A stretch of DNA of 64,000 nucleotides from Clostridia bacterium (GTDB lineage Bacteria; Bacillota; Clostridia; Monoglobales; Monoglobaceae): the NCBI GenBank assembly GCA_900769795.1, contig CAAGHZ010000001.1, forward strand, positions 25,178 through 89,177, read 5' to 3'. Position 1 is the stretch's first letter, and the number at the start of each line of letters is the position of its first letter. This document shows, piece after piece, positions 8,001-60,819 of the stretch. The notes under the pieces are model-generated. The model did not search any database. It had not been told where the DNA came from and saw only the letters and a list, made by a program, of their open reading frames with translations. The position numbers and the translations under genes are program-made.

Positions 8001-9947
8001 ATGAAAAAAGCACTAAACAATACTTGTGTCAAAAAATTCATTGACGAGACTTCATTATATCTCTTCAACAATGGAACAAACTATGAAAGCTACCATATGC
8101 TTGGGGCGCATCCGGCAACAGACGCCCATGGGGTCTTTGGTTATCTCTTTGCCCTATGGGCACCAAATGCAGAATCCGTCTCTGTGGTCTGCGACAACAA
8201 CGGTTGGGACAGGTCCCGCAATATAATGCACAAAATATCAACCTCCGGTGTCTGGGAAGTTTTCGTTCCACATATTACAGAGGGTCAGAATTATAAATTC
8301 AGCATTGAAGATACAAATGGTAATGTGTTTTTAAAATCCGACCCATTTGCATTTTACTCAGAAGTTCGCCCTTTGACAGCATCTGTCACAACTGATTTAT
8401 CATATGGTTGGAACGACAAAGTATGGATGGACAGTCGCAAAGCGACACCTCCCTATGACAAACCCCTCAACATCTACGAAATGCACTTTGGCTCTTTCAA
8501 GACCAAGAATGACGGCAGTTTTTATACCTACACCGAGATGATAGATATTCTTATACCATACATCAAAAAACTCGGATACACCCATATTGAACTTATGCCG
8601 ATTTGCGAGTATCCCTTTGACGGCAGTTGGGGATATCAGGTGACCGGTTATTACAGCGCAAACAGCCGCTATGGTAAACCAACAGAACTCAAATCATTTA
8701 TCGACGCCTGCCATAGGGAGGGCATAGGTGTGATTATGGATTGGGTGCCTGCCCACTTTCCAAAAGATGCCCATGGGCTTGCTAACTTTGACGGCACCCC
8801 TTTATTTGAGCATCCCGACGCAAGGCGTGGTGAACATAAAGAGTGGGGCACTCTTGTTTTTGACTGGACAAAAACGGAGATTTTCTCATTTCTTATCTCC
8901 AACGCCATCTTCTGGCTCTCGGAATATCATATAGATGGTCTTCGTGTTGATGCGGTATCCAGTATGCTATATCTTGATTACAACCGCCAGGGCGGAGAGT
9001 GGCTACCCAACAAATACGGTGGCAAAGAGAATTTAGAAGCAATTGACTTTTTGCAAAAATTAAACACCGCAGTTTTCGAGAGATTCCCTAATGTTTTAAT
9101 GATTGCCGAAGAATCCACCGCCTGGAGCGGTGTTACTGCGCCTGCAGACACAGGCGGACTTGGGTTTAACTTTAAATGGAATATGGGTTGGATGCACGAT
9201 ATTCTCGATTATATGCAATGCGACCCGCTCTTCCGCAAATACAACCATAACAAACTGACTTTTTCTATGATGTACGCTTCTTCAGAAAATTATATCCTTG
9301 CCCTGTCTCACGACGAGGTTGTTCACGGGAAACGCTCGCTTCTTGACAAAATGTGGGGCAGTTACGAAGAAAAGTTTGCTCAGCTTCGGCTTTTGTATGC
9401 ATATATGTACGCACACCCGGGCAAAAAACTTCTGTTTATGGGCAGCGAATTCGGGCAATTTACCGAATGGCGATTTGCCGAAGAACTTGATTGGCTCCTC
9501 GACGATTACGATCTGCACTCGAAAATGCGGGCATATTGTTCTACTCTTAATAAATTCTACAAGGACCATAGTTCATTTTATGAAATCGAGCGCGAAGGCG
9601 AAGACTGGCGTGGCTTTAAGTGGCTTTGTGCAGACGATTTCTCAAACAGCGTGCTGTCTTTTATGCGCGCCAACAAAAAAGGCGACGAGAAAATTGTCGT
9701 TATAATAAACTTTACTCCTGTAAGTCGGCCTAACTACGTTGTGGGGGTTCCGGAATATGGAGAATTTGAGGTTGTAATGTCCTCCAACGCAAAGTCTTTT
9801 GGCGGAGATGGCAGAGGCTCTCGCAAACTTAGCGCAAAACTCAAACCACACAATGATTTTAATTATTCAATCAGACTAAACCTCCCTCCACTTACGGCTT
9901 TATATTTAAAATTTAAACCACTTTCTGAAAAACCAAAGCAAAGCTGA
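8001..9947 (+). CDS. glgB: 1,4-alpha-glucan branching enzyme (GH13)
   Basis: Motifs DWVPAHFPKD, GLRVDAVSSM and MIAEESTAW. The ATG at 8001 is preceded by GGGGGGG and is preferred over the track start at 7941. Confidence 0.95.
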   Translation: MKKALNNTCVKKFIDETSLYLFNNGTNYESYHMLGAHPATDAHGVFGYLFALWAPNAESVSVVCDNNGWDRSRNIMHKISTSGVWEVFVPHITEGQNYKFSIEDTNGNVFLKSDPFAFYSEVRPLTASVTTDLSYGWNDKVWMDSRKATPPYDKPLNIYEMHFGSFKTKNDGSFYTYTEMIDILIPYIKKLGYTHIELMPICEYPFDGSWGYQVTGYYSANSRYGKPTELKSFIDACHREGIGVIMDWVPAHFPKDAHGLANFDGTPLFEHPDARRGEHKEWGTLVFDWTKTEIFSFLISNAIFWLSEYHIDGLRVDAVSSMLYLDYNRQGGEWLPNKYGGKENLEAIDFLQKLNTAVFERFPNVLMIAEESTAWSGVTAPADTGGLGFNFKWNMGWMHDILDYMQCDPLFRKYNHNKLTFSMMYASSENYILALSHDEVVHGKRSLLDKMWGSYEEKFAQLRLLYAYMYAHPGKKLLFMGSEFGQFTEWRFAEELDWLLDDYDLHSKMRAYCSTLNKFYKDHSSFYEIEREGEDWRGFKWLCADDFSNSVLSFMRANKKGDEKIVVIINFTPVSRPNYVVGVPEYGEFEVVMSSNAKSFGGDGRGSRKLSAKLKPHNDFNYSIRLNLPPLTALYLKFKPLSEKPKQS

Positions 9948-32559: not shown

Positions 32560-33384
32560 TTAGTCACCATATTTATACTCAATATTTTTCCTGCGATATA
32601 TCAGCGGGGATTCTCCGCATTTTTGCCTGAATCTGCGGGAAAAGTAAAACTGATCGCAGAATCCCAGGGTCGCGCTTATCTCACCAATGGACAACTCTCT
32701 ATTTAGCAACATTAGTTTTGCCTTTTCTATTAAAAGAGTATCTATATATTCACCTGTTGACTGTCCAAATTCTCGTCGAAAATGATTATTTAGCGTGTTT
32801 CTGCAGATAAACAAATCCTCGCATACATGTTTTACCGTCAGCCGTGCAGAGAGATGCTCCTTTATATAGTCAACGGCCATAATAACATCCGGCGAATGAT
32901 TTTGATAAGATACGGCTATGCCACACGACTTTAAAAATCTGACAATATCCAGAGAAATCCGACTGCGAAGGGCAAACAGGTCTTTCTCGTCTGTGCTGTG
33001 ATAAAGGTCAACAAGTTCTTCTATATAATCGCATCGGAATCCCTCTTGCATACTGCATAATGAAAGAATATCCTTCCCTGTAAAATCAACAACCTTAACA
33101 TGAAAAAACAGTTGCTTTACATCACCACTAATTACAGTTCTAATCGTCTGTCCGGCAGGAATCAGGTACACATTTCCCTTTCGCATCACATATTTCTTTC
33201 TGCTTACCTCAATTTCCTGCTCTCCGTCAATAATATAGTAAAGTCGTGAAAACGGAGGCGATGTCAGTTCCCACGAATATTTTGGTGCAATATGAGCAAA
33301 ACCGCTTTCGACAACCTCTAGATTTACGGTTCCTTTATTAAATTCACGCGAGTGAAAAACCTTAATCATTGTGCATTTCTCCAT
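32560..33384 (-). CDS. AraC-family transcriptional regulator (cupin-like N-terminus, HTH C-terminus)
   Basis: 274 aa. The C-terminal FCDQFYFSRRFRQKCGESP is a typical AraC HTH. It is divergent from the GH29 operon. Confidence 0.85.
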   Translation of the reverse strand: MEKCTMIKVFHSREFNKGTVNLEVVESGFAHIAPKYSWELTSPPFSRLYYIIDGEQEIEVSRKKYVMRKGNVYLIPAGQTIRTVISGDVKQLFFHVKVVDFTGKDILSLCSMQEGFRCDYIEELVDLYHSTDEKDLFALRSRISLDIVRFLKSCGIAVSYQNHSPDVIMAVDYIKEHLSARLTVKHVCEDLFICRNTLNNHFRREFGQSTGEYIDTLLIEKAKLMLLNRELSIGEISATLGFCDQFYFSRRFRQKCGESPLIYRRKNIEYKYGD

Positions 33385-33506
33385 ATATTGTTATCAGATA
33401 TTTATGGACTTTACTGTAGTTTTGCAATAAAATCTGTTTAAAATACATATTATTTATATCATTTATTTTGGCTAATGTCAATATTTTATGAAGATTGGAG
33501 ATTGTT

Positions 33507-34811
33507 ATGTTAGATTATGGAGTAAGAAAAACCCCCGGAAACACCGCCTGGTTTACCCACGACCGTCTTGGGCTTTTTATTCACTTTGGTCTGTATGCTA
33601 TGCCTGCCTGCGGCGAGTGGTGTAAACTTACAAAGCAAATTTCAGAAGAAAAATATCAAAAATACTTTGACTACTTTAATCCTGACCTTTTTGATGCACG
33701 AGAGTGGGCTAGAGCGGCAAAAAATGCAGGTATGAAATACGCCGTTCTGACAACTAAGCACCACGAGGGATTTTGTCTCTTTGACACAAAATACACAGAC
33801 TATAAAATAACCAACACTTCATTTGGCAGGGATCTTGTCAGGGAATACGCAGATGCCTTTCGAGCAGAGGGATTACATGTGGGCCTATATTACTCTCTAA
33901 TAGACTGGCATCATCCTGATTTTACAGTTGACCGCTTTCACCCAAGAGGAAAGGATAATGATACTCAGAATATAAATGACGGTCGCGATATGAAAAAATA
34001 TGCAGAGTATATGCGCAATCAGGTTTCAGAACTTCTCTCAAACTACGGCAAGATTGATATTCTGTGGCTCGACTTTTCTTACGAAGGGAGCGATAAATGG
34101 CCACAGGGCAAAGGTAAAAATGAATATGAATCTCAGAAATTGATTGACCTTGCGCGGAAACTTCAGCCTGAAATCATTATAGATAACCGCGCAGATATTG
34201 ACCAGGACATCTGGACACCCGAACAATATCAACCCACCGAGTGGGTTAAGCACAGGGAGACCGGCGAGCCTGTTGTGTGGGAGGCATGTCATACAATGTC
34301 AGGCCTATGGGGATATAATCGTGACGAATTAAAAGTCAAAAGTCCCGAGATGCTGATTAAGATGATTATCAAATCCGTCTCTCTTGGCGGAAATATAATT
34401 CTTAACGTCGGGCCTGACGCACGAGGCCGCTTTGACGAGTACTCTGAAAAAACTCTTAAAGAAATCGGCAAATGGATGAGTCTTAACAGTCGCTCTGTAT
34501 ATGGCTGCACCATGGCAATGCCGGAATTCAAATCTCCAAACGGCTGTCTGTACACACAAAGTCAAGATGGCAAGCGCCTTTATGTGCATCTTATCGATTA
34601 TCCCTTCCGCTTTCTTGAGTTACCTGGACTGGTTGGCAAAATTGACTATGCACAGTTCTTAAATGACGGAAGTGAAATTATTTTTACCGAAAACAAAGTA
34701 ACGAGCCTTGCAGATTCGTATGCAAAGGATTTATCAGGCATCGTAATGCTTGAACTTCCGACAATAAAGCCTAACGTAACCATCCCTGTTATCGAACTGT
34801 TTTTAAAATAA
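33507..34811 (+). CDS. GH29 alpha-L-fucosidase, no signal peptide
   Basis: Motifs LTTKHHEGFCLFDT and IDILWLDFS. The ATG at 33507 follows GGAG. Confidence 0.85.
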   Translation: MLDYGVRKTPGNTAWFTHDRLGLFIHFGLYAMPACGEWCKLTKQISEEKYQKYFDYFNPDLFDAREWARAAKNAGMKYAVLTTKHHEGFCLFDTKYTDYKITNTSFGRDLVREYADAFRAEGLHVGLYYSLIDWHHPDFTVDRFHPRGKDNDTQNINDGRDMKKYAEYMRNQVSELLSNYGKIDILWLDFSYEGSDKWPQGKGKNEYESQKLIDLARKLQPEIIIDNRADIDQDIWTPEQYQPTEWVKHRETGEPVVWEACHTMSGLWGYNRDELKVKSPEMLIKMIIKSVSLGGNIILNVGPDARGRFDEYSEKTLKEIGKWMSLNSRSVYGCTMAMPEFKSPNGCLYTQSQDGKRLYVHLIDYPFRFLELPGLVGKIDYAQFLNDGSEIIFTENKVTSLADSYAKDLSGIVMLELPTIKPNVTIPVIELFLK

Positions 34812-34824
34812 AGGAGTGATTGAT

Positions 34825-36090
34825 TTGAAAAAAGAAAAGTTACGAATTGCCCTTGTAGGTTGCGGTCAGTTTTGTCGCAATTTTGTGCCTTTGTTTCGCG
34901 ACCATCCGGCAGTCGAATATGTGGCCGTATGTGACAAATTCCGCAACCGTGCAGAAGACTTTCAAACCACATATGGCGTGGGCCGTGTTATAGACACCTT
35001 CGACGATGTACTTGCTGCTGATGACATTAACGCAGTTGCAATTTTCACACAACGTGACCTCCATGGTGATATGGCAATGCGCTCACTTATGGCGGGCAAG
35101 CATGTGTATTCGGCCGTGCCAATGTCTCTTAAAGCAGAAGACATTCTTGAGATTGTTAGACTTGTCAAAGAAACCGGCCTGACATATTCAATGGGGGAGA
35201 CAGGTGTATACAGACCTGCAGCAATCTTCTGCCGCAAAAAATTTGCCTCCGGCGAAATGGGCGACATGGTTTACGCCGAGGCACAATACAATCACGATAT
35301 GAAGCGTCTTTACCATGTGTTTCAAAACACAGAGGGTGACAAATGGAGATTAATGGCAGGACTTCCTCCTATGTTATATCCAACACACTCAACCTCTATG
35401 GTGTTATCGTCAGCAAACACACACGCTGTAAAGGTTGCGGCGTTTGGTATGGAGGATAGATATGACACTGATATTTTTGGCAAAGGTAAAAATTATTGGG
35501 ATAATCCTTTTTCAAATACCTCAATGCTCTTAAAACTCAACAACGGGGCTATTGCGCGCATCAGCGAGAACAGACGAATAGCGTGGCACTTTCCAGAAAC
35601 TTACCTCTCATCTTTTAATGGTACTAAAGCCTCTTACGAATGTTCCCTTGCGCAGCACAGTTATGTACAGATGAAAGAAGACGGTCTTGTTGACTTTACC
35701 GATGTGAGTGACCTACTCAACCCAACTGAACTGACCGCTCATAAACACGACATTGACTTTATGAAACAAATTTCCAACAACAAGTGGTCTCGTGGCGAGG
35801 CTCCTATTCAGATGACCGCACGTCTTCCCAAAGAGTTTGTCTCCCTCCACACAGGACACGGTGGCACACATAAGTTTATGGTAGACGACTTCTGTCAGGC
35901 TTACGCAACTGGCAAACTCTCTCCTACCAACGCATGGACGGCTGCAAGGTATAACCTTCCCGGCCTTATTGCTCACCAAAGCGCATTAAACGGCGGTGCA
36001 ACCATGGATATCCCCGACCTAGGAGACCCTCCTGCACATCTTGAAGTTCTATCTCTTGACCGCACTGAAAACGAGGACGACTACAGATGA
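34825..36090 (+). CDS. Gfo/Idh/MocA-family NAD(P)-dependent oxidoreductase (long form, about 421 aa)
   Basis: Rossmann start RIALVGCGQF. The TTG at 34825 lies 8 nt after AAGGAG, whereas the track GTG at 34816 sits inside the Shine-Dalgarno sequence. Confidence 0.8.
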   Translation: MKKEKLRIALVGCGQFCRNFVPLFRDHPAVEYVAVCDKFRNRAEDFQTTYGVGRVIDTFDDVLAADDINAVAIFTQRDLHGDMAMRSLMAGKHVYSAVPMSLKAEDILEIVRLVKETGLTYSMGETGVYRPAAIFCRKKFASGEMGDMVYAEAQYNHDMKRLYHVFQNTEGDKWRLMAGLPPMLYPTHSTSMVLSSANTHAVKVAAFGMEDRYDTDIFGKGKNYWDNPFSNTSMLLKLNNGAIARISENRRIAWHFPETYLSSFNGTKASYECSLAQHSYVQMKEDGLVDFTDVSDLLNPTELTAHKHDIDFMKQISNNKWSRGEAPIQMTARLPKEFVSLHTGHGGTHKFMVDDFCQAYATGKLSPTNAWTAARYNLPGLIAHQSALNGGATMDIPDLGDPPAHLEVLSLDRTENEDDYR

Positions 36091-36959
36091 AATACTTAGT
36101 AATGACAGTTTCCATTTTATTATCCGTACTCAATGCTTGTTTGCTTAAAAGCTATACCAACGGGCAAAATAAGACATATAACACCCTTCTCTTTAACAGT
36201 GGGGTCTGTGCTATGTGGGCAACGCTTCTCTCCGGCCTCCTAGCCATTTCAGTCAATGAAGTAAACCTAACAACGGTAGGTTTTGGAATCGTATATGGAG
36301 TAATTCTGTTTGCCTTCTTATTTTATAAGACCTCAACTATGCAAACAGGTCCCATTACTCTTGGAACTTTGGTTGGCAGTTGCGCATTTTTGATTACAAT
36401 CATATATGGAGTTGGCTTTTGCGATGAAAGTATAAACATCGAGCAAATTTCAGGAATTCTTCTGTTAATTATATCGCTTGTTTTTTGTATAAACCCTAAA
36501 AAAAGTACAGAAATTCTAACCGGTAAATGGCTCTTTAATTGCACATGTTTTTTCCTTGCAGGTGGCGCGGTAGGAATTTTATACAAAATTTTTGGTGCTT
36601 CTCCCGTCAAAGATAATGCTGATGCTATGCTTTGTACTGCGGCAATTGTCGGTTTTCTGCTCTTTCTTATAAGCAATATAATATTTTCTGCAAAGAATAA
36701 ATGTAACATAAAGCCTTGCAAACGCACCGTTGTATATATGATACTAAGTGGGATTGCAAGCTGCATATATATTAGACTTAATATTTCTTTGTCAGCTATA
36801 ATTCCAAGCGTTGTTTTCTTTCCGGTAAGCAACGGAGGCATGGTTATTCTGTCCGCACTATGCGGAAAATTAGTGTACGGCGAAAAACTCAACCGCAGAC
36901 AATCAGCCGGTATAATTCTCGGTTGTGTCGCTATATTGATTATTGGGTGTGCCCAATAG
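36087..36959 (+). CDS. 10-TM membrane protein, DMT/EamA-like putative sugar permease
   Basis: 290 aa and about 10 hydrophobic segments in two halves. An ATGA overlap couples it to the oxidoreductase gene. The family call rests on topology and size only. Confidence 0.5.
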   Translation: MKYLVMTVSILLSVLNACLLKSYTNGQNKTYNTLLFNSGVCAMWATLLSGLLAISVNEVNLTTVGFGIVYGVILFAFLFYKTSTMQTGPITLGTLVGSCAFLITIIYGVGFCDESINIEQISGILLLIISLVFCINPKKSTEILTGKWLFNCTCFFLAGGAVGILYKIFGASPVKDNADAMLCTAAIVGFLLFLISNIIFSAKNKCNIKPCKRTVVYMILSGIASCIYIRLNISLSAIIPSVVFFPVSNGGMVILSALCGKLVYGEKLNRRQSAGIILGCVAILIIGCAQ

Positions 36960-53723: not shown

Positions 53724-53840
53724 TTTAATTCTCCTTTTTGTCAGTAGAGTTCAGTATTTTTATAGTTCGTGTCAAGTTGGTACTAAAATTTATCCTAATT
53801 CAGCCCAATATTTTTGCGCATAGTAATTATATCACAAACA

Positions 53841-53870
53841 TAAAAAAATGACAACCCAAAGGGTTGTCAT
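53841..53870 (-). terminator. Intrinsic terminator ending the locus B operon
   Basis: A 10-bp stem (ATGACAACCC/GGGTTGTCAT) with a 3-nt loop, followed on the minus strand by T7. Confidence 0.8.
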
Positions 53871-53897
53871 TTAATCACCTTATTTTATTTTCGTCTC

Positions 53898-55142
53898 TTA
53901 GTATCTGCTCTCCTGTACATCTTCAATCTCATACACAATCGCATCCTCGGCGTTTTCAAACTCAAGTTTAATGATTATAACCTCAGAGCAGATGCGGTTA
54001 ACCGGGATTTTGTTTATGTGAAACACAGGGTCGTTCTTCTTTCCTTTTTCGTACAGTGTAGGCATCTTATCCATAGATATTTCAAGTTCTGTTCCGTCAT
54101 TGAGGACACTTGCCCTTGTTGGAAGAGCCTTTATGTTCTTCACAAAAAATCCTGTTGCATCAAGCCCTTTTGAAAAATGAAGATATATAGTATTATCCTT
54201 TTTTGTTGAAAGAAACTCTTTTTCAGATACCCATTTACAACTGTACGGCTCTGCAAAAAGAGCCTCTCTTACACGCTTGTACCAATCCCCCACCAACAAA
54301 AGCGACTCCCTCGCCACCTCAGGAATAACACCGTTTTCGTCAGGGCCAACGTTTAGCACATAGTTGCCACCCATAGCCATAATTCTGTCTATGGCAGATG
54401 TAAGATAAAGGTTTGAGTAATAGTCCTCGTTCCGTCTGTATCCCCACGCCTGTCGTCCGACAGAATTGCACGCCTCGGTATAAGAATCAAATCTGTTGCC
54501 ATCAGGGACCTCTCTCTCGGGAGTTGAAAAATCGCCGTCGTCGTAGCCTCTGTTGTTTATAAATATGCCGGGCTGAAGTTTTCTTATAAGTTCATTTATC
54601 GAGGCATCACGAGTCTTGGGGGGAATATCCCAAAAGAAACTTTGGATTTTACCATAATTGGTCAACAACTCTGTAACCTGATTTTTTACATACTCAATAT
54701 ACAACGCTTCATTAGGACTATCCCCTTCCTTTGGCTCTGCAAGTTCATGACTTGCGCCAAAGTTCGGATAGTTTGGATGGTGCCAGTCAGGAACCGAGTA
54801 ATACAACGACAAACCTATGCCTGCCTTGTGACACTCTTCTGAAAGTTCTTTTAAAACATCTCTGCCACAAGGAGAGTTAGTTATCTTAAAACCCGTATAC
54901 TTGCTATCCCACATACAAAATCCGTCATGATGCTTTGTGGTAAAACATATGTAGTCCATGCCTGTTTCTTTCGCAAGCTTTACCCACTCTTTTGGATTAT
55001 AACTTTGCGGATTAAACCTGTCTATATAACTTTGATACGCCTTGCTTTCTATGGGATAACGCCATTGCATCTGCTCGTGCCAGCCCTCTATCGCATATAG
55101 CCCCCAATGAACAAACATACCAAATCTTTTTGTCTTAAACAT
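53898..55142 (-). CDS. GH29 alpha-L-fucosidase paralog, no signal peptide
   Basis: Motifs FTTKHHDGFCMWDS and SFFWDIP. The ATG at 55142 lies 7 nt after AAGGAG; the track start at 55166 is a TTG. Confidence 0.85.
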   Translation of the reverse strand: MFKTKRFGMFVHWGLYAIEGWHEQMQWRYPIESKAYQSYIDRFNPQSYNPKEWVKLAKETGMDYICFTTKHHDGFCMWDSKYTGFKITNSPCGRDVLKELSEECHKAGIGLSLYYSVPDWHHPNYPNFGASHELAEPKEGDSPNEALYIEYVKNQVTELLTNYGKIQSFFWDIPPKTRDASINELIRKLQPGIFINNRGYDDGDFSTPEREVPDGNRFDSYTEACNSVGRQAWGYRRNEDYYSNLYLTSAIDRIMAMGGNYVLNVGPDENGVIPEVARESLLLVGDWYKRVREALFAEPYSCKWVSEKEFLSTKKDNTIYLHFSKGLDATGFFVKNIKALPTRASVLNDGTELEISMDKMPTLYEKGKKNDPVFHINKIPVNRICSEVIIIKLEFENAEDAIVYEIEDVQESRY

Positions 55143-55179
55143 ACCTATTCTCCTTATACCCCTCAATTATATACAGACT

Positions 55180-56025
55180 TTATACCCCACTGTATGCAGA
55201 AAATCCTCCATCCACAGGAATAACCGTTCCGTTTACAAAACCCGATGCTTCCTTTGAAACAAGGAACAAAAGAGTTCCTACAAGTTCTTCGGGCTTACCG
55301 AATCTTCCCATTGGTGTTGCAGCAAGAATTTTATCTGTTCTTGGGGTTGGCTCTCCACTCTCTGTGAACAAAAGTTTTTCGTTCTGCTTTGTTACAAAAA
55401 AGCCCGGAGCAATAGCGTTACATCTGATATTTGTCTTTGAAAAATGCACCGCCAGCCACTGCGTAAAGTTTGAGATTGCCGCCTTTGCACCGCTATACGC
55501 AGGAATCTTGGTAAGAGGTGTGTATGCATTCATGCTTGATATATTTATGATGCATGCATCCTCCTTATCTGTCATATCCTTTGCAAAAGCCTGCGTCGGC
55601 AAAAGTGTACCAAGAAAGTTAAGATTAAACACAAACTCTACCCCTGACTTATCAAGGTCGAAAAATGTTTTTACTCCCTCTGCCGCCTCAGGGTCAAAAT
55701 ACTCGCAATCTGTTGTTGCCTTAGGATTATTACCGCCTGCGCCGTTAATCAGAATATCACAAGTGCCAAAATCCTTTATAATTTCCGCACGTGCGTTTTC
55801 TATGCTTTCTTTTTCAAGCACGTTACAAGCATAGCCTTTGGCTATACCGCCATCCTTTACGATTTTGTCCGCATATTCTTTCGCCGCATCAACGTTCAGG
55901 TCTAAAAGTGCTATCTTTGCTCCTGTTTTTGCCATAGCCTGTGCAAACATAGAACAAAGTACGCCACCTGCACCCGTTATAACGCAGACCTTGTTTTTTA
56001 AATCTACTTCAAATGGCAACTTCAT
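55180..56025 (-). CDS. SDR-family oxidoreductase (UxuB/fructuronate-reductase-like by context)
   Basis: 281 aa. Motifs VITGAGGVL and catalytic YSGAKAA. A TAATG overlap couples it to uxuA. Confidence 0.75.
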   Translation of the reverse strand: MKLPFEVDLKNKVCVITGAGGVLCSMFAQAMAKTGAKIALLDLNVDAAKEYADKIVKDGGIAKGYACNVLEKESIENARAEIIKDFGTCDILINGAGGNNPKATTDCEYFDPEAAEGVKTFFDLDKSGVEFVFNLNFLGTLLPTQAFAKDMTDKEDACIINISSMNAYTPLTKIPAYSGAKAAISNFTQWLAVHFSKTNIRCNAIAPGFFVTKQNEKLLFTESGEPTPRTDKILAATPMGRFGKPEELVGTLLFLVSKEASGFVNGTVIPVDGGFSAYSGV

Positions 56026-57068
56026 TACTTATTTCCTCCCTTTTCAAGAGTCTCCCATATTCCTGCCATGTACATAGCTCCGAGAGCTCTGTCATAAAGG
56101 CCGTAGCCGGGCTTGCCTGTCTCGCCCCATATCATTCTTCCGTGGTCAGGGCGCAAATATCCCTTAAACCCTGTCTCGTGATACGCCTTTAAAATCTCCA
56201 CCACGTCAAGAGAGCCGCACTCACTGAGATGTCCGCTCTCTTCAAACGAGCCATCATCTAAAATCTTTATATTTCTTACGTGGGCAAAGTGAATTCTGCC
56301 CATAGCACCGTATTTTTTTACCATGGCAGTATAGTCATTAAACTTTGCACAACCGAGGCTTCCGCTGCACAATGTGAGTCCATGGTGGACATCATCATAC
56401 AGCGACAAAAATCTGTCTATATTTTCTTCTGTTGTAATGATTCTCGGAATCCCAAAAATTGGCCAGGGCGGATCATCCGGATGTATAGCCATGTTAACAT
56501 CGCACTCCGCTGCAACGGGAATAATCTCTTTTATAAAATACTCAAGATTACTCCACAGGCCTTCTTCGCCTATTTCCTTATACTTATCTATCAAACCGCT
56601 CATCTCGTCAGGAGTGTAAGAAGCATCCCAACCGGGAAGAGTCATCTTTGTCGGGTCCATCTTATCTACATCACCCTTATAGTATACAAGAGCATTAGAA
56701 CCATCAGGAAGCGGTTGATCAAGACGGGAGCGTGTCCAGTCAAATACGGGCATGAAGTTATAGCAAATACACTTAACCCCCGCCTTGGCAAGACGACGGA
56801 TGTTTTCCTTGTAGTTATCAATATAGCGTTGATAGTCACCCTGTCTGAGTTTTATATCCTCATGGACGGGCACACTCTCTATTACTTCCATCTCAAGGCC
56901 CTTGGCATTTACCTCCGCCTTCATTCTATCTATCTCTTCCTGTGACCACACTTCGCCAACAGGGACAGAATAAACAGCAGTTACTACCCCCGACACACAA
57001 GGGATTTGTCTGATTTTGCTAAGTGTTACGGGATCGTCATCTCCGTACCACCTGAAAGTCATTTTCAC
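56025..57068 (-). CDS. uxuA: Mannonate dehydratase family protein
   Basis: 347 aa. The N-terminus MKMTFRWYGDDDPV is characteristic of UxuA. Confidence 0.9.
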   Translation of the reverse strand: MKMTFRWYGDDDPVTLSKIRQIPCVSGVVTAVYSVPVGEVWSQEEIDRMKAEVNAKGLEMEVIESVPVHEDIKLRQGDYQRYIDNYKENIRRLAKAGVKCICYNFMPVFDWTRSRLDQPLPDGSNALVYYKGDVDKMDPTKMTLPGWDASYTPDEMSGLIDKYKEIGEEGLWSNLEYFIKEIIPVAAECDVNMAIHPDDPPWPIFGIPRIITTEENIDRFLSLYDDVHHGLTLCSGSLGCAKFNDYTAMVKKYGAMGRIHFAHVRNIKILDDGSFEESGHLSECGSLDVVEILKAYHETGFKGYLRPDHGRMIWGETGKPGYGLYDRALGAMYMAGIWETLEKGGNK

Positions 57069-57111
57069 TTGTCATCACTCCAATCTTATCTTTTGTTTGC
57101 TAAAATACATC

Positions 57112-57888
57112 TTAATAAAAACCTTTTGTTTTTAAGAAATCATAACTTTGCTTCAGCGACTCAAATGGGTCATCATTTACCCAGTCGCTGTCCTGCTCTA
57201 CCATCGCCCACTCGGAACCGGCCTCCTCGCAGGCAGCGATGATTCCATCCCAATCAAGATTTCCGCTGCCAATTTCTCGCATAACAGGTACGTTTCTTTT
57301 GTCAAAGTCCATGCCGCAATCCTTAAAATGTATTATCTTCGCTCTCTCCCCGAGTTTACGTATGACATCAGCAGGATTTTTTCCGCCAATTTGGAGCCAG
57401 TAGACATCAACTATAAAGTTGAAAAGTTCAGGGTCTGATTCTTCAAGTATAATATCAAACATGGTTTTTCCGTCAATTTTGCCAAACTCAAAAGCATGGT
57501 TATGGTATCCAAATTGCAGTCCCTCTTTTTTTAGTTCTGCGCAAAATCTGTTGATATCATTAATAAACTGCATCAGGTTTTCCTTGTTACCGATTATAGC
57601 ATCAGGCATACAGCCAATCCCACACATATCTACGCCAAGCACCTTGTTATACTCTATAACCTCATCAAGATTATTTTTAAAATCATCAAATCTTCTGTGG
57701 GTTACAACGGTCCTTAAATCATACTTATCAAGAATGGGTCTCATTTCCCGCGCAGGCAGTCCCACACCCGAAACCTGAACAATTTTGTACCCCATATCCT
57801 TCAGTTTTTTGCATGACGCTTCAAAATCTTCAATTGTTCTAAGATGATCTCTTATGGTCATAAGTTGTGCACCAATTCTCTTATCCAT
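57112..57888 (-). CDS. Xylose-isomerase-like TIM-barrel protein (sugar phosphate isomerase/epimerase family)
   Basis: 258 aa. The pattern is typical of the AP_endonuc_2 fold (HNHAFEF, IIHFKD, WAMVEQD). A 1-nt overlap couples it to the upstream gene. Confidence 0.75.
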   Translation of the reverse strand: MDKRIGAQLMTIRDHLRTIEDFEASCKKLKDMGYKIVQVSGVGLPAREMRPILDKYDLRTVVTHRRFDDFKNNLDEVIEYNKVLGVDMCGIGCMPDAIIGNKENLMQFINDINRFCAELKKEGLQFGYHNHAFEFGKIDGKTMFDIILEESDPELFNFIVDVYWLQIGGKNPADVIRKLGERAKIIHFKDCGMDFDKRNVPVMREIGSGNLDWDGIIAACEEAGSEWAMVEQDSDWVNDDPFESLKQSYDFLKTKGFY

Positions 57889-59042
57889 TAATAAGTACCC
57901 TCCATATCCAAAACTTCTCTCTTGTCAACCTTTACAACCTTTGAGTTTTTAATCTTCTCCTGCAGAAGTTCATAGAACCTGTCATCCGGGAAATTCTTAA
58001 CATCTACCGTCTCTCCTGTCCAACTACTCAAATGTATCGCATTTGATATGGTAAGTCCAAAGATTCCTTCCTCTCCTTTGGCAATAAGTTCGCTGCCATT
58101 GAGCAGAGCATTTGTGTAGTTTTTAAGAATACCAACATGCTGCTCTCCGCCTGAGGAGTCGCATGGTATATCACAAACCCAGCACTCAGGATTGCCGCGC
58201 CTGCCCTCTGCGTTGTGAACTCTCTCGGAAATTACGTTTCTTGAGAAAGTAATTTTGTTATTCTCCACAACAACCTTACCCATATCACAAGCGATTTCAA
58301 GACGATTCGTGCCCGGTGCCTCTCCTGTCGATGTTATATACTCACCGGTTGTGCCGTTGTCATATTCAAAATAAGCCATAACATCGTCTTCTACCTCAAT
58401 GTCATAGTACTTACCATAAGATGCCTTTGCAAAAATTCTGTCAGGCATACCAAAGAGCCACTGCCACAAATCAAGTTGATGTGGGTTTTGGTTAATCAAT
58501 GTACCGCCGCCCTCATCCTTCCAGGTAGAGCGCCATGCACTACTGTCATGATACGCCTGCGGTCTGTACCACGTTGTGATAATCCAAGTTACTCTCTTTA
58601 TATGACCAAGGTCGCCTCTTTTTATCATCTCTCTGAGTTTTTGATATACAGGATTTGTTCTCTGGTTGTACATAATACCAAAAAGTTTATCTGACTTTGC
58701 CGCCGCCTCGTTCATCTCTTTTACCTGCTTTGTATATACGCCTGCAGGCTTTTCAACTAAAACATTAAGTCCGTAATCAAAAGCCATCATTGCAAGAGAC
58801 GGATGGTCATAGTGCGGCACCGCAATAAGAATCATATCGCAAAGTCCGCTTTTGTACATCTCTTCTGCGTTTTCAAAAATACCTATATTCGGATATTTTT
58901 CCGCCGCATCCTTTCGTCTGTCTTCACACGTGTCGCATATAGCCGCAAGTTCCATCTTCGGTACCATTCCGTCATATATTTTTCTTGCATGGATAGTACC
59001 CATATTTCCAAATCCGATTATGCCTATTCTTACCTTTTCCAT
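57888..59042 (-). CDS. Gfo/Idh/MocA-family NAD(P)-dependent oxidoreductase
   Basis: 384 aa. Rossmann start RIGIIGFGNMG and the EKP motif VLVEKPAG. Confidence 0.85.
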   Translation of the reverse strand: MEKVRIGIIGFGNMGTIHARKIYDGMVPKMELAAICDTCEDRRKDAAEKYPNIGIFENAEEMYKSGLCDMILIAVPHYDHPSLAMMAFDYGLNVLVEKPAGVYTKQVKEMNEAAAKSDKLFGIMYNQRTNPVYQKLREMIKRGDLGHIKRVTWIITTWYRPQAYHDSSAWRSTWKDEGGGTLINQNPHQLDLWQWLFGMPDRIFAKASYGKYYDIEVEDDVMAYFEYDNGTTGEYITSTGEAPGTNRLEIACDMGKVVVENNKITFSRNVISERVHNAEGRRGNPECWVCDIPCDSSGGEQHVGILKNYTNALLNGSELIAKGEEGIFGLTISNAIHLSSWTGETVDVKNFPDDRFYELLQEKIKNSKVVKVDKREVLDMEGTY

Positions 59043-59044
59043 TT

Positions 59045-59902
59045 TTATTCCACTCCTATTCTTTCTACTATTTTACAGAGCGCATTGTATGCTATTTCAA
59101 AAGTCCCCTCTCCACTCTTTGGAAGACTCATCATTTCATCGCCAAGTTCTAAATCCGCAAGCCCCTCAAACGACCCGAGATGTGGCTCAAGGCTTAAGTA
59201 TCCGCGATAACCTTTTTCAAAAAGATCTGTCAGAATATATTCTACATTTCCGTCTCCCATACCTGCAGGAACAACTCTGCCACTCTCGCAATAAGCATCT
59301 TTTATATGCATATACTCTATATATTTATATAGCATATCATAAGCCTTCTTAGTATCTACTCCGCTTTGAACAAAGTTGGCAGGGTCAAATACTGCCTTAA
59401 AGTTATCGCAATAAAGTCTCTCCATCAGTTCTAGGCAATTTTCTGCCGACTCACCATAGATGTCCTTTTCGTTTTCGTGCAGAAGAATAATTCCCTCCGC
59501 TTTTGCGTACTCAATCATTCTGCCAAGTTTTTCAAAAATCTGTCGTATGTCATCCTCGCTCCAGTTTCCCTTTTCATCAGGATAAAAACTGAATATTCGT
59601 ATATATTCAGCGCCTATAATTTTTGCAACCTTTACAGTGTTTTTAAAAACTTCAAAATGGCTTTCAAAATCACCCGATATCTTTATCTTACCAATCGGTG
59701 ATCCCACAGATGACACCTCAATCCCATGCTTATCCATCTTCTCTTTAAGGGCATGTGCTTCTTCTTCTGTGAACTCCGAAATATTCTTGCCATCAACAAA
59801 TCTCGGCTCAAAGTATTTTATACCAAGTTTGTTTAAGACCTCAAACTGTTTATCCACCATTTTATCAATCTCGTCCGCGAATCCGCTTATGTATCTGTAC
59901 AT
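59045..59902 (-). CDS. Xylose-isomerase-like TIM-barrel protein (second paralogous fold member)
   Basis: About 285 aa. Motifs LLHENE, YMHIKD and YLSLEPH. The ATG at 59902 lies 6 nt after GAGGAGAG. Confidence 0.75.
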   Translation of the reverse strand: MYRYISGFADEIDKMVDKQFEVLNKLGIKYFEPRFVDGKNISEFTEEEAHALKEKMDKHGIEVSSVGSPIGKIKISGDFESHFEVFKNTVKVAKIIGAEYIRIFSFYPDEKGNWSEDDIRQIFEKLGRMIEYAKAEGIILLHENEKDIYGESAENCLELMERLYCDNFKAVFDPANFVQSGVDTKKAYDMLYKYIEYMHIKDAYCESGRVVPAGMGDGNVEYILTDLFEKGYRGYLSLEPHLGSFEGLADLELGDEMMSLPKSGEGTFEIAYNALCKIVERIGVE

Positions 59903-59918
59903 CACATTCTCTCCTCTC

Positions 59919-59935
59919 TATAATCACGTACAGTA
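59919..59935 (+). promoter_or_regulatory. Operator-like motif copy 1 (TATAATCACGT-ACAGTA)
   Basis: The 11-nt core is identical to the copy at 60009. It lies in the 5' UTR of the minus-strand operon. Confidence 0.35.
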
Positions 59936-59937
59936 TA

Positions 59938-59965
59938 ATTATATCGCAAATTTTTATATTTTCAA
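59938..59965 (-). promoter_or_regulatory. Promoter of the six-gene locus B operon
   Basis: On the minus strand: TTGAAA, a 16-nt spacer, then TATAAT. Confidence 0.5.
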
Positions 59966-59985
59966 CACTTTTTTTGTCTCAGATA

Positions 59986-60014
59986 TTGCATATCTTGCTC
60001 TTTTGTGATATAAT
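59986..60014 (+). promoter_or_regulatory. Near-consensus promoter of the locus B AraC gene
   Basis: TTGCAT, a 17-nt spacer, then TG-A-TATAAT. Confidence 0.6.
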
Positions 60015-60030
60015 CACGTCAATTACAGTA
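60009..60030 (+). promoter_or_regulatory. Operator-like motif copy 2 (TATAATCACGT-CAATT-ACAGTA)
   Basis: It has the same 11-nt core plus ACAGTA, sits 90 bp from copy 1, and overlaps the -10 of the AraC promoter. Confidence 0.35.
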
Positions 60031-60045
60031 AGGAGGTGATATCAG

Positions 60046-60819
60046 ATGCCTTTATATTCAGCAGAAGAGTCCATGGTAGAGCACAGCAACAACTCTCGTT
60101 ATTTTTTGCATACCCATCAGGAATACGAAATTTTCATGTTTCTTGAGGGTGATTCTGAATATGTTATAGAGGAAAAAACCTACCCTTTGGAGAGCGGCGA
60201 TATCATTATTATCCGAAAAAACAAAATGCACAGGATATTTCATAATTCATCATCAAGATATCACCGCATCTGCCTTATGATTTCTCCTGATTTTTTTGCG
60301 GAGAAAAACTGCCCCGAGTACGAAGACGTTTTTATTAACGCCCCCGATGACAGAGGCAGTAAAATAGATGCCCGTATCGCACACGAAAGCGGTCTTTATG
60401 ACGCGATTAACAGACTTAAAAAATACTCGGATAATTTCAAAAACATGTACACACCTCTTTGTGATGCCGTTGTCACGGAGATTCTATACATCATAAATAA
60501 GGCAGTAAGTTTCTCTGCCCCAAAGCAGGCCAATCACCACATAAACAAGGTTATCTCCCACATTAACTCAGCATTTACCCAAAAGATAACTCTTGATGAA
60601 CTGTCCGAGAAATTTTTTATTTCAAAATATCATTTGTGCAGACTCTTCAAGCAGGCAACGGGGCTTACCATCCACGACTACATAAAGAACAAGAGAGTCG
60701 CCCTCGCCGAGGATCTTATCAGTAAGGGCTACAATATGACAGAGGCAGCTGCACTATCAGGCTTTAGTGATTATGCAGCCTTTTACCGCGCAAAAAAATC
60801 TAAAACAACCGAAAAGTAA
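60046..60819 (+). CDS. AraC-family transcriptional regulator
   Basis: 257 aa. Cupin-like N-terminus (HTHQEYEIFMFLEG) and a C-terminal HTH (LSGFSDYAAFYRAKK). It is divergent from the operon. Confidence 0.85.
   Translation: MPLYSAEESMVEHSNNSRYFLHTHQEYEIFMFLEGDSEYVIEEKTYPLESGDIIIIRKNKMHRIFHNSSSRYHRICLMISPDFFAEKNCPEYEDVFINAPDDRGSKIDARIAHESGLYDAINRLKKYSDNFKNMYTPLCDAVVTEILYIINKAVSFSAPKQANHHINKVISHINSAFTQKITLDELSEKFFISKYHLCRLFKQATGLTIHDYIKNKRVALAEDLISKGYNMTEAAALSGFSDYAAFYRAKKSKTTEK

Follow-up and report, generated by a model that had tools for sequence, protein, structure and literature searches.

A predicted operon of six genes, with a divergent regulatory gene upstream, was analysed in a 64,000-nt stretch of Clostridia bacterium DNA (contig CAAGHZ010000001.1 of assembly GCA_900769795.1, positions 25,178-89,177; hereafter the window), where it appears to specify an oxidative route for the breakdown of glucuronides. 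The six open reading frames (ORFs) are co-directional on the minus strand (53898-59905) and encode, in order of transcription, a triosephosphate isomerase (TIM) barrel protein, TIM1 (59045-59905; 286 aa from a GTG start, 285 aa if the ATG at 59902 is used), a Gfo/Idh/MocA oxidoreductase, Oxi1 (57888-59042; 384 aa), a second TIM barrel, TIM2 (57112-57888; 258 aa), the D-mannonate dehydratase UxuA (56025-57068; 347 aa), a D-mannonate oxidoreductase of the short-chain dehydrogenase/reductase (SDR) type, i.e. a fructuronate reductase with UxuB function (55180-56025; 281 aa), and a GH29 α-L-fucosidase-family protein (53898-55142; 414 aa). One divergent ORF on the plus strand (60046-60819; 257 aa) encodes an AraC/XylS-family regulator with the architecture of that family, a cupin sensor domain at the N-terminus (PF02311/PF07883) and a helix-turn-helix domain (HTH_18) at the C-terminus (PF12833/PF00165). 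The locus had been singled out in an earlier annotation made from the letters of this DNA (hereafter the original prediction); the ORF listing placed the six genes and the divergent regulator exactly where they had been described, and the family labels given to them held in searches with Pfam and NCBIfam profiles, judged against the curated NCBIfam cut-offs.

Going from TIM1 to the GH29 gene, 2 nt separate the first two genes, the next pair overlaps by 1 nt, 43 nt lie between TIM2 and uxuA, uxuA and the SDR gene overlap by 1 nt, and 13 nt remain before the GH29 gene. These spacings agree with the original prediction; only the last of them probably has to be revised. The 13 nt apply to a longer GH29 ORF (53898-55166; 422 aa), whereas the ATG at 55142, which is preceded by AGGAG at a distance of 8 nt and was annotated as the start in an identical ENA contig, is the more likely one and makes the gap 37 nt. 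A promoter-like site with 11 of 12 consensus matches (TTGAAA, 16-nt spacer, TATAAT; 59938-59965, minus strand) precedes the operon. Promoter-like matches were not enriched across the region (26 found versus 18.4 +/- 5.0 expected); therefore, the promoter call rests on position and cross-species conservation. An intrinsic terminator closes the operon (53836-53872, minus strand; stem at 53872-53846, then a T-run). It consists of a 12-bp stem and a 3-nt loop followed by the T-run, and its predicted RNA fold of -20.5 kcal/mol (z = -5.35) was equalled in stability by none of 200 shuffled sequences. Both the promoter-like site and the strong terminator proposed earlier are present. No terminator was found between the SDR gene and the GH29 gene. 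As had been proposed for this predicted single AraC-linked operon, the Pfam list contains no transporter, PfkB-type kinase or aldolase in the operon or in ~8 kb on each side; in addition, tblastn detected no UxaC anywhere in the 64-kb window.

The closest characterised counterpart of the first three genes is the P2B11 gene cluster (Iso1-Oxido1-Oxido2-Iso2). According to the available text of Nasseri et al. (bioRxiv 10.1101/2024.03.25.586180), the P2B11 proteins cleave α- and β-(thio)glucuronides by oxidation at C3, elimination and hydration; Mn2+/Co2+ stimulate the activity and supplying NAD(P)(H) does not change it, and the reaction cannot do without Oxido1, is accelerated by Iso1 and Iso2 and is little affected by Oxido2. 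Oxi1 matched the P2B11 glucuronide-3-dehydrogenase (PDB 8TDI) with E = 1.7e-94 and 320 bits, the runner-up structure reaching 99 bits. A P2B11-type locus (L095) was found through protein P0241, which is 99% identical to an 8TDI sequence mostly rebuilt from the alignment; its contig reproduces the published P2B11 layout and carries an MFS_2 permease and UxaC ~3-5 kb downstream. In BLASTP comparisons with this locus, Oxi1 was 41% identical to Oxido1 (E = 2e-105), TIM1 was 41% identical to Iso1 over its full length (E = 5e-65) and TIM2 was 31% identical to Iso2 (E = 7e-33). No match of either TIM barrel to the other's Iso partner was listed at E <= 1e-3, and the mapping is thus one-to-one. Six pocket residues of Oxi1 (N126, W158, R160, Y164, N184 and H188) are invariant in 79 of 79 family sequences, the window protein included, and correspond to N147, W179, R181, Y185, N205 and H209 of Oxido1; this correspondence uses an inferred numbering offset of +10, which reproduces every spacing exactly. 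The operon has an Oxido1-type dehydrogenase, both distinct TIM barrels and the catalytic residues, and lacks Oxido2. The second oxidoreductase (Oxi2) that occurs in related loci is 32-37% identical to P2B11 Oxido2 and 35-40% identical to the Oxi2 of Lacrimispora saccharolytica. On these homologies TIM1-Oxi1-TIM2 is a predicted P2B11-type oxidative (3-keto) glucuronide-cleaving cassette, in which Oxi1 would be the Gfo/Idh/MocA glycoside 3-dehydrogenase corresponding to Oxido1.

Both TIM barrels belong to the xylose-isomerase-like family PF01261 (105 bits for TIM1) and are only remotely akin to each other (hhalign probability 62%). When a family profile built from 34 TIM2 sequences was compared with the PDB, the best match was AtOGE of Agrobacterium tumefaciens (8BVK; 1.6e-36), followed by 8TCS and 8TCD (3e-30) and 8TCT (1.3e-27). 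Residues H129, N130, H131, D161, H187 and E231 of TIM2 are invariant in the 34 sequences, which thus keep the H-N-H motif. Four of them (H129, D161, H187 and E231) align with the Mn2+ ligands of AtOGE (H132, D163, H189 and E233), and H131 aligns with its catalytic base, H134 (Bitter et al. 2023, PMC10628242). It appears likely from this alignment that TIM2, as the counterpart of Iso2, is a TIM barrel of the 3-keto-glycoside 1,2-lyase (β-eliminase) type. The invariants of the TIM1 family are H142-E-N-E145, D173, H199 and E239, an E-D-H-E pattern that in this superfamily typically goes with metal-dependent enolate chemistry. Among solved structures TIM1 had only distant matches (Art22, AsbF, MJ1311 and tagatose 3-epimerase). 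Lyase and hydratase roles are described for the AL/BT system of Alistipes and Bacteroides in the available text of 10.1101/2024.03.25.586180; because of these and the AtHYD precedents we infer that TIM1, the counterpart of Iso1, may be a second 3-keto-glucuronide lyase (for the other anomer) and/or a 2-hydroxy-3-keto-glycal hydratase.

The two genes that follow the cassette pass curated cut-offs. UxuA scored 487 bits with PF03786, 483 bits with NF003027 (cut-off 191) and 399.5 bits with the TIGR00695 equivalog (cut-off 199.55). The SDR reached 448 bits with the subfamily model NF006132, 'D-mannonate oxidoreductase' (cut-off 281), and is most probably a fructuronate reductase/mannonate oxidoreductase (UxuB). 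Wherever such an SDR lies beside the cassette in related loci, a UxuA partner is present. The original prediction had regarded the enzyme combination as odd and had found no described pathway to match it, and neither statement survives: the 8TDI match and the one-to-one BLASTP mapping identify the TIM-Gfo-TIM part with the P2B11-type cassette, of which uxuA and an SDR-type uxuB are the expected downstream continuation. Its suggestion of a dedicated route for sugar-acid glycosides was borne out insofar as the predicted cassette is of the glucuronide-cleaving type.

A scan of one genome per species yielded 80 loci with an Oxi1 at 66-80% identity, all of them in metagenome-assembled genomes (MAGs) of Clostridia (Acetatifactor, Lachnospiraceae, Oscillospiraceae, Monoglobales and others). 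By their record titles, many of these MAGs come from animal and human gut samples. Gene content was counted over 45 species-level loci with adequate flanks: TIM1 was present in 44, TIM2 in 30 and Oxi2 in 27, and a divergent AraC gene lay upstream of TIM1 in 29 (orthologues at 47-53% identity), while UxuA together with the SDR was found in 11 and UxaC in 3. In L037, L038 and L045 the SDR gene is directly followed by UxaC; in L009 the order UxuA-SDR-UxaC is found upstream of the cassette, UxaC being located between the SDR gene and TIM1. The presence of UxaC beside the cassette in related loci argues that the glucuronate-fructuronate-mannonate-2-keto-3-deoxygluconate (KDG) route follows cleavage. 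Clustering of all flanking ORFs from ~80 species showed that the recurrent catabolic neighbours are uronate genes only, and the uronide specificity of the clade is therefore independently supported. Proteins with a CE15 glucuronoyl-esterase domain (PF22244) are encoded within a few kb of the cassette in L014, L015, L032, L075, L077, L083 and L085, and in some cases the neighbourhood also has one more Gfo/Idh/MocA gene and a YitT membrane protein; the recurrence of CE15 hints at natural substrates derived from xylan/lignin (4-O-methyl)glucuronoyl esters. The loci L083-L085 (e.g. L083:12144-14633) show a conserved 829-aa protein without a Pfam match directly after Oxi2, and then a protein of >2200 aa.

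The composition of the cassette is modular: Oxi2, TIM2, MATE, CE15 and GH29 genes come and go. The exact architecture of the window was unique among the loci examined, so that a search of neighbourhoods for recurrence of the six-gene order, which had been suggested as a check, gave a negative answer. In the closest relative (L086; Oxi1 85% identical) AraC and TIM1-Oxi1-TIM2-UxuA-SDR precede an unrelated protein of 371 aa, whose only match, to GDSL, is below threshold (E = 0.003). The next relative (L088:8855-15803; 83%) is found at the chromosomal site that the operon occupies in the window, next to the IleRS, Zip and C_GCAxxG genes, and has the order TIM1-Oxi1-Oxi2-UxuA-SDR, where Oxi2 replaces TIM2 and there is no sixth gene; this cassette is followed by an AraC gene in convergent orientation and a further TIM barrel. 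It is because L086 and L088 differ in gene content that we speak of modules, L088 being a case of module swapping between close lineages, and this agrees with a remark on interchangeable components in the available text of the P2B11 report. A 'de-decoration slot' at the sixth position was also considered; its support is no more than anecdotal, given that the sixth gene of L086 has nothing beyond its sub-threshold GDSL match.

In eight loci (L028, L031, L036, L040, L042, L052, L053 and L059) a MATE transporter gene (PF01554) directly follows a minimal TIM1-Oxi1 pair at ~1.2 kb from the Oxi1 start, and these loci lack TIM2, Oxi2 and uxu genes. In L057 it follows Oxi2, ~3.9 kb from the Oxi1 start. 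This transporter may export released aglycones.

The related loci also point to a candidate regulatory site. A three-repeat element, GCAAgaw-wTGCAATrt-N5-6-rCAA, occurs in 25 of the 33 divergent AraC-TIM1 spacers; the operator-like pattern has a density of ~4.3 per kb in the spacers as against 0.027 per kb in 2.56 Mb of sequence from the loci (both strands), an enrichment that is large but descriptive, the pattern having been derived post hoc from the same spacers. In the window the candidate operator, with three GCAA-type repeats, is GCAAGATATGCAATATCTGAGACAA (59974-59998, minus strand). Read in the direction of the operon (59998-59974), it ends 8 nt upstream of the -35 element, and adjoining the -35 is the usual position for the operator of an AraC/XylS activator. 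AraC is proposed to bind this GCAA-repeat element. A -10 element of the TTTGyGATATAAT type is found at the same relative position in orthologous loci. In the window two such elements stand back to back as a 13-nt inverted repeat around the operator, one facing the operon (59938-59950) and the other facing araC (60002-60014). Because these mirrored elements flank the operator and one of them faces araC, the arrangement suggests autoregulation of AraC. An exact 11-nt direct repeat, TATAATCACGT, is also present at 59919-59929 and 60009-60019, 90 nt apart, with one copy in the 5' untranslated region of the operon and the other beyond the operator. In L066, an Acetatifactor MAG, the AraC-TIM1 spacer (~8800-9020) contains about three tandem copies of a ~50-nt unit, cagcgaaatcatgggcagtatgagaattgtggtctgactgggacgctttc, which push the GCAA operator far upstream.

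Taken together, these results favour the reading of the operon as a system for AraC-activated glucuronide catabolism without a Koshland-type glucuronidase, which would feed ordinary sugar-acid catabolism; we put its probability at about 0.7. The steps proposed here all derive from homology to the P2B11, AL/BT and AtOGE systems. Oxi1, with tightly bound NAD, would oxidise the C3-OH of an imported α- or β-glucuronide to give a 3-keto-glucuronide. TIM2, as an Mn2+/Co2+ lyase of the OGE/AL1 type, would then abstract H2 by means of its conserved His and expel the aglycone by β-elimination, and TIM1 (Iso1-like) would serve as complementary lyase and/or as hydratase to yield 3-keto-glucuronate. Reduction of this compound by the NADH of Oxi1 would give D-glucuronate, so that cleavage would be redox-neutral overall. 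Glucuronate would be converted to fructuronate by a UxaC encoded elsewhere, fructuronate to D-mannonate by the SDR and mannonate to KDG by UxuA. KDG would pass to KdgK/KdgA, which would be encoded elsewhere, as would the importer. AraC, bound to the GCAA-repeat operator beside the -35, would activate transcription in response to a glucuronide-related ligand.

Several observations weigh against this glucuronide reading. The window cassette has only 31-41% identity to characterised enzymes and belongs to a sister clade known from sequence alone. Oxido2 is absent from the operon by both the ORF list and Pfam; since the report on P2B11 gives only minor effects of Oxido2, it is probably dispensable. 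The available text of that report establishes no specific role for the TIM1 counterpart either. The pathway is locally incomplete, uxaC being absent from the window and kdgK, kdgA and an importer from the operon and its flanks. Lastly, uxuA/uxuB accompany the cassette in no more than about a quarter of the related loci; in most it occurs by itself, and in eight it has a MATE transporter instead.

The place of the sixth gene bears on the first alternative, in which GH29 would be an integral component of an operon devoted to a glucuronide that carries fucose (or L-galactose): fucose blocking O-3 or O-2 of glucuronic acid (GlcA) would be removed before Oxi1 acts, with fucosylated chondroitin, side chain A of rhamnogalacturonan II (RG-II) or the GlcA branches of fucoidan as substrates. 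The protein scored 238 bits with PF01120, matched no NCBIfam model and has no signal peptide. Its best solved match is 6GN6 (1.8e-63), with residue 34 of which its N-terminus aligns, and its Asp (in FFWD) and Glu (in STPE) align with D207 and E260 of that structure. We take the catalytic residues of 6GN6 to be Asp186/Glu239 in the numbering of its paper, and the 53-residue spacing fits D207/E260. GH29 looks catalytically intact and is probably a cytoplasmic exo-α-L-fucosidase co-transcribed with the operon, although some members of the family are α-L-galactosidases (e.g. 7LNP). Its intact catalytic residues speak for an integral role, as do its position within the transcription unit (37-nt gap, no terminator before it), the free 3-OH that the mechanism needs according to the available text of Nasseri et al., and the setting of its closest relative, P0122 (70% identity; L092:1-9245), which lies behind a GH88-containing protein of 1753 aa and a PL8 lyase of 1386 aa. 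Such a setting belongs to uronate polysaccharides and differs from that of the window; the other GH29 relatives lie in unrelated contexts. However, among the 45 well-flanked cassette loci GH29 was found in just one, L065, as distant paralogues (29-31% identity) near Oxi1 in an N-glycan cluster that also encodes GH38, GH18 and a transglutaminase-like protein, and none of 83 loci with GH29 relatives in the metagenome scan had the cassette, UxuA or UxaC beside it. GH29 is likewise missing from the two closest cassette relatives with a readable sixth position, the sixth gene being unrelated in L086 and absent in L088. We therefore consider an integral role unlikely and, in the absence of conserved coupling, regard GH29 as an accessory or passenger gene specific to this lineage; the fucosylated substrate suggested in the original prediction is not upheld by these counts.

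A wider version of the same idea is just as doubtful. It is a hybrid Koshland/non-Koshland route in which GH29 would unmask O-3/O-2 of GlcA for the cassette and in which, possibly with a UxaC-independent TIM1, the six genes would lead to KDG. Its substrates might be fragments masked by α-L-fucose or α-L-galactose, derived from fucosylated chondroitin, RG-II chain A, fucoidan or bacterial capsules, and this too has a low probability.

The window contains a second AraC-linked cluster (32560-36959), composed of an AraC gene (32560-33384, minus strand), a second GH29 gene (33495-34811; PF01120, 297 bits; 31% identical to the operon GH29), a Gfo/Idh/MocA gene (34816-36090; 424 aa; best PDB match DgpA, 2e-15; weak GH109 matches) and a gene for an EamA-type membrane protein (36087-36959). 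A cytoplasmic GH29 and an NAD-dependent oxidoreductase are thus paired twice within 64 kb.

The substrate could also be of another kind. If the cassette acted on sulfoquinovosides, 6-phospho- or 6-sulfo-glycosides, or neutral O- or C-glycosides, uxuA and the SDR gene would be merely co-located or would serve another sugar acid. In the available text of 10.1101/2024.03.25.586180 the P2B11 enzymes also cleave, at a slow rate, substrates of the 6-PO4, 6-SO4 and sulfoquinovoside kinds, and AL3 of the glucoside system is able to oxidise glucuronides; specificity is therefore loose. The absence of uxu genes from most related cassettes fits such a reading, as do weak matches of Oxi1 to DgpA (61 bits) and IolG (98 bits). 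However, no structure other than 8TDI exceeded 99 bits against its 320, no DgpB/C-like subunit was matched, the scores for the IolG, IolE, levoglucosan dehydrogenase and BT_2158/2159 models were far under their cut-offs, and the neighbours that recur are UxuA, UxuB, UxaC and CE15, with no recurrence of glucose, sulfosugar, altronate or galacturonate genes. Another class of glycoside thus seems improbable. Individual assignments were rejected on the same scores: myo-inositol (IolG, 98.5 bits versus 355; IolE, 55.8 for TIM2 and 26.3 for TIM1 versus 290), levoglucosan dehydrogenase and BT_2158/2159 (far below the cut-offs), and C-glycoside deglycosidase (DgpA, 61 bits versus 320 for 8TDI, with no DgpB/C or CarB/C chains among the TIM-barrel matches).

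Least probable of all is a UxaC-independent route, in which a TIM barrel, likeliest TIM1, would isomerise 3-keto-glucuronate to a 2,3-diulosonate that the NADH of Oxi1 would reduce to fructuronate, taking the glucuronide to KDG. Its chemistry seems plausible, the operon and the 64-kb window lack uxaC, just 3 of the 11 uxuA/uxuB-linked loci have it, and TIM1 has the E-D-H-E-type metal pattern of ketose epimerases/isomerases, with tagatose 3-epimerase among its solved relatives; yet TIM1 and an adjacent uxaC occur together in L009, L037, L038 and L045, which argues for the standard route, UxaC is found near the P2B11-type locus too, and uxaC is often unlinked to other hexuronate genes.

The glucuronide reading may be set against known systems. 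The P2B11 cluster shares with the window homologous Oxi1 (41%), TIM1/Iso1 (41%) and TIM2/Iso2 (31%) proteins with the same pocket residues, the lack of a DUF1080 protein, a Gram-positive gut origin and the lack of an adjoining importer. It differs in length (~397-402 aa, versus ~386 aa in the clade of the window) and in order (Iso1-Oxi1-Oxi2-Iso2, versus Iso1-Oxi1-Iso2 without Oxido2). Moreover, the window cassette is fused in a predicted operon to uxuA, an SDR-type uxuB and GH29, and it has a divergent AraC with a candidate operator, whereas the available text of 10.1101/2024.03.25.586180 reports no transporter or regulator near P2B11. The 3-keto-glucoside pathway of Alistipes and Bacteroides (AL1-3/BT2156-2160) follows, in the same text, a similar logic of oxidation, elimination, hydration and re-reduction, and TIM2 is homologous to its AL1/BT1-type lyases (8TCD, 8TCS and 8TCT; ~1e-30 with the family profile). 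That pathway uses a DUF1080 protein as α-lyase/hydratase and acts on neutral glucosides, while the window has TIM1 in place of the DUF1080 protein and a context that points to uronides. In the GlycDH/AtOGE/AtHYD pathway of A. tumefaciens (PMC10628242), AtOGE is the best solved relative of TIM2, with Mn ligands and catalytic His conserved, and a second 'sugar phosphate isomerase' likewise serves as hydratase, but oxidation is carried out by a flavoenzyme oxidase rather than a Gfo/Idh/MocA enzyme, the substrates are plant O-glucosides and there is no link to hexuronates. DgpA and DgpB-C of gut strain PUE also combine a Gfo/Idh/MocA 3-dehydrogenase with an Mn-dependent TIM-barrel eliminase; however, the match to DgpA is only 61 bits, no subunits resembling the DgpB/C heterodimer were detected and there is no sign of C-C cleavage.

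With the Ashwell hexuronate pathway of E. coli and B. subtilis (uxaC, uxuB, uxuA, kdgK and kdgA) the window shares UxuA and the SDR, both of which pass curated cut-offs, and in four related loci uxaC completes the module. Unlike that pathway, the window has no uxaC, kdgK, kdgA or exuT locally, its regulator is AraC-type rather than GntR/LacI-type, and entry would be by oxidative cleavage rather than through free glucuronate or a β-glucuronidase (GUS) enzyme. GH2 GUS loci have the same proposed role, the release of aglycone and glucuronate from glucuronides for carbon, but their enzymes and mechanism are unrelated; the window cassette is expected to accept both anomers as well as thio-linkages, and GUS active-site inhibitors would be expected to have no effect on it.

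In its enzyme logic the operon follows the P2B11, AL/BT and AtOGE pathways; there is no new mechanism, and the value of the finding is incremental. What is new with respect to the available literature is the fusion to uxuA/uxuB (sometimes also uxaC), the dedicated AraC with its candidate operator, the breadth and modularity of the sister clade, and the one-off addition of GH29. In the available literature no later publication that connects the cassette with uxuAB turned up.

GH2 GUS enzymes are treated as the microbial route by which glucuronidated drugs, hormones and dietary compounds are reactivated. The 2024 work on P2B11 revealed that an oxidative alternative to GUS exists, and its available text gave no regulator, transporter or metabolic context (10.1101/2024.03.25.586180). 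The cassette is widespread in MAGs of Lachnospiraceae, Oscillospiraceae and other Clostridia, with ~80 species-level relatives, and its linkage to uxuA/uxuB in about a quarter of the loci, sometimes together with uxaC, supports glucuronide catabolism as its physiological role. AraC and the candidate operator make the induction of the system, the identity of its effector and its prevalence directly testable.

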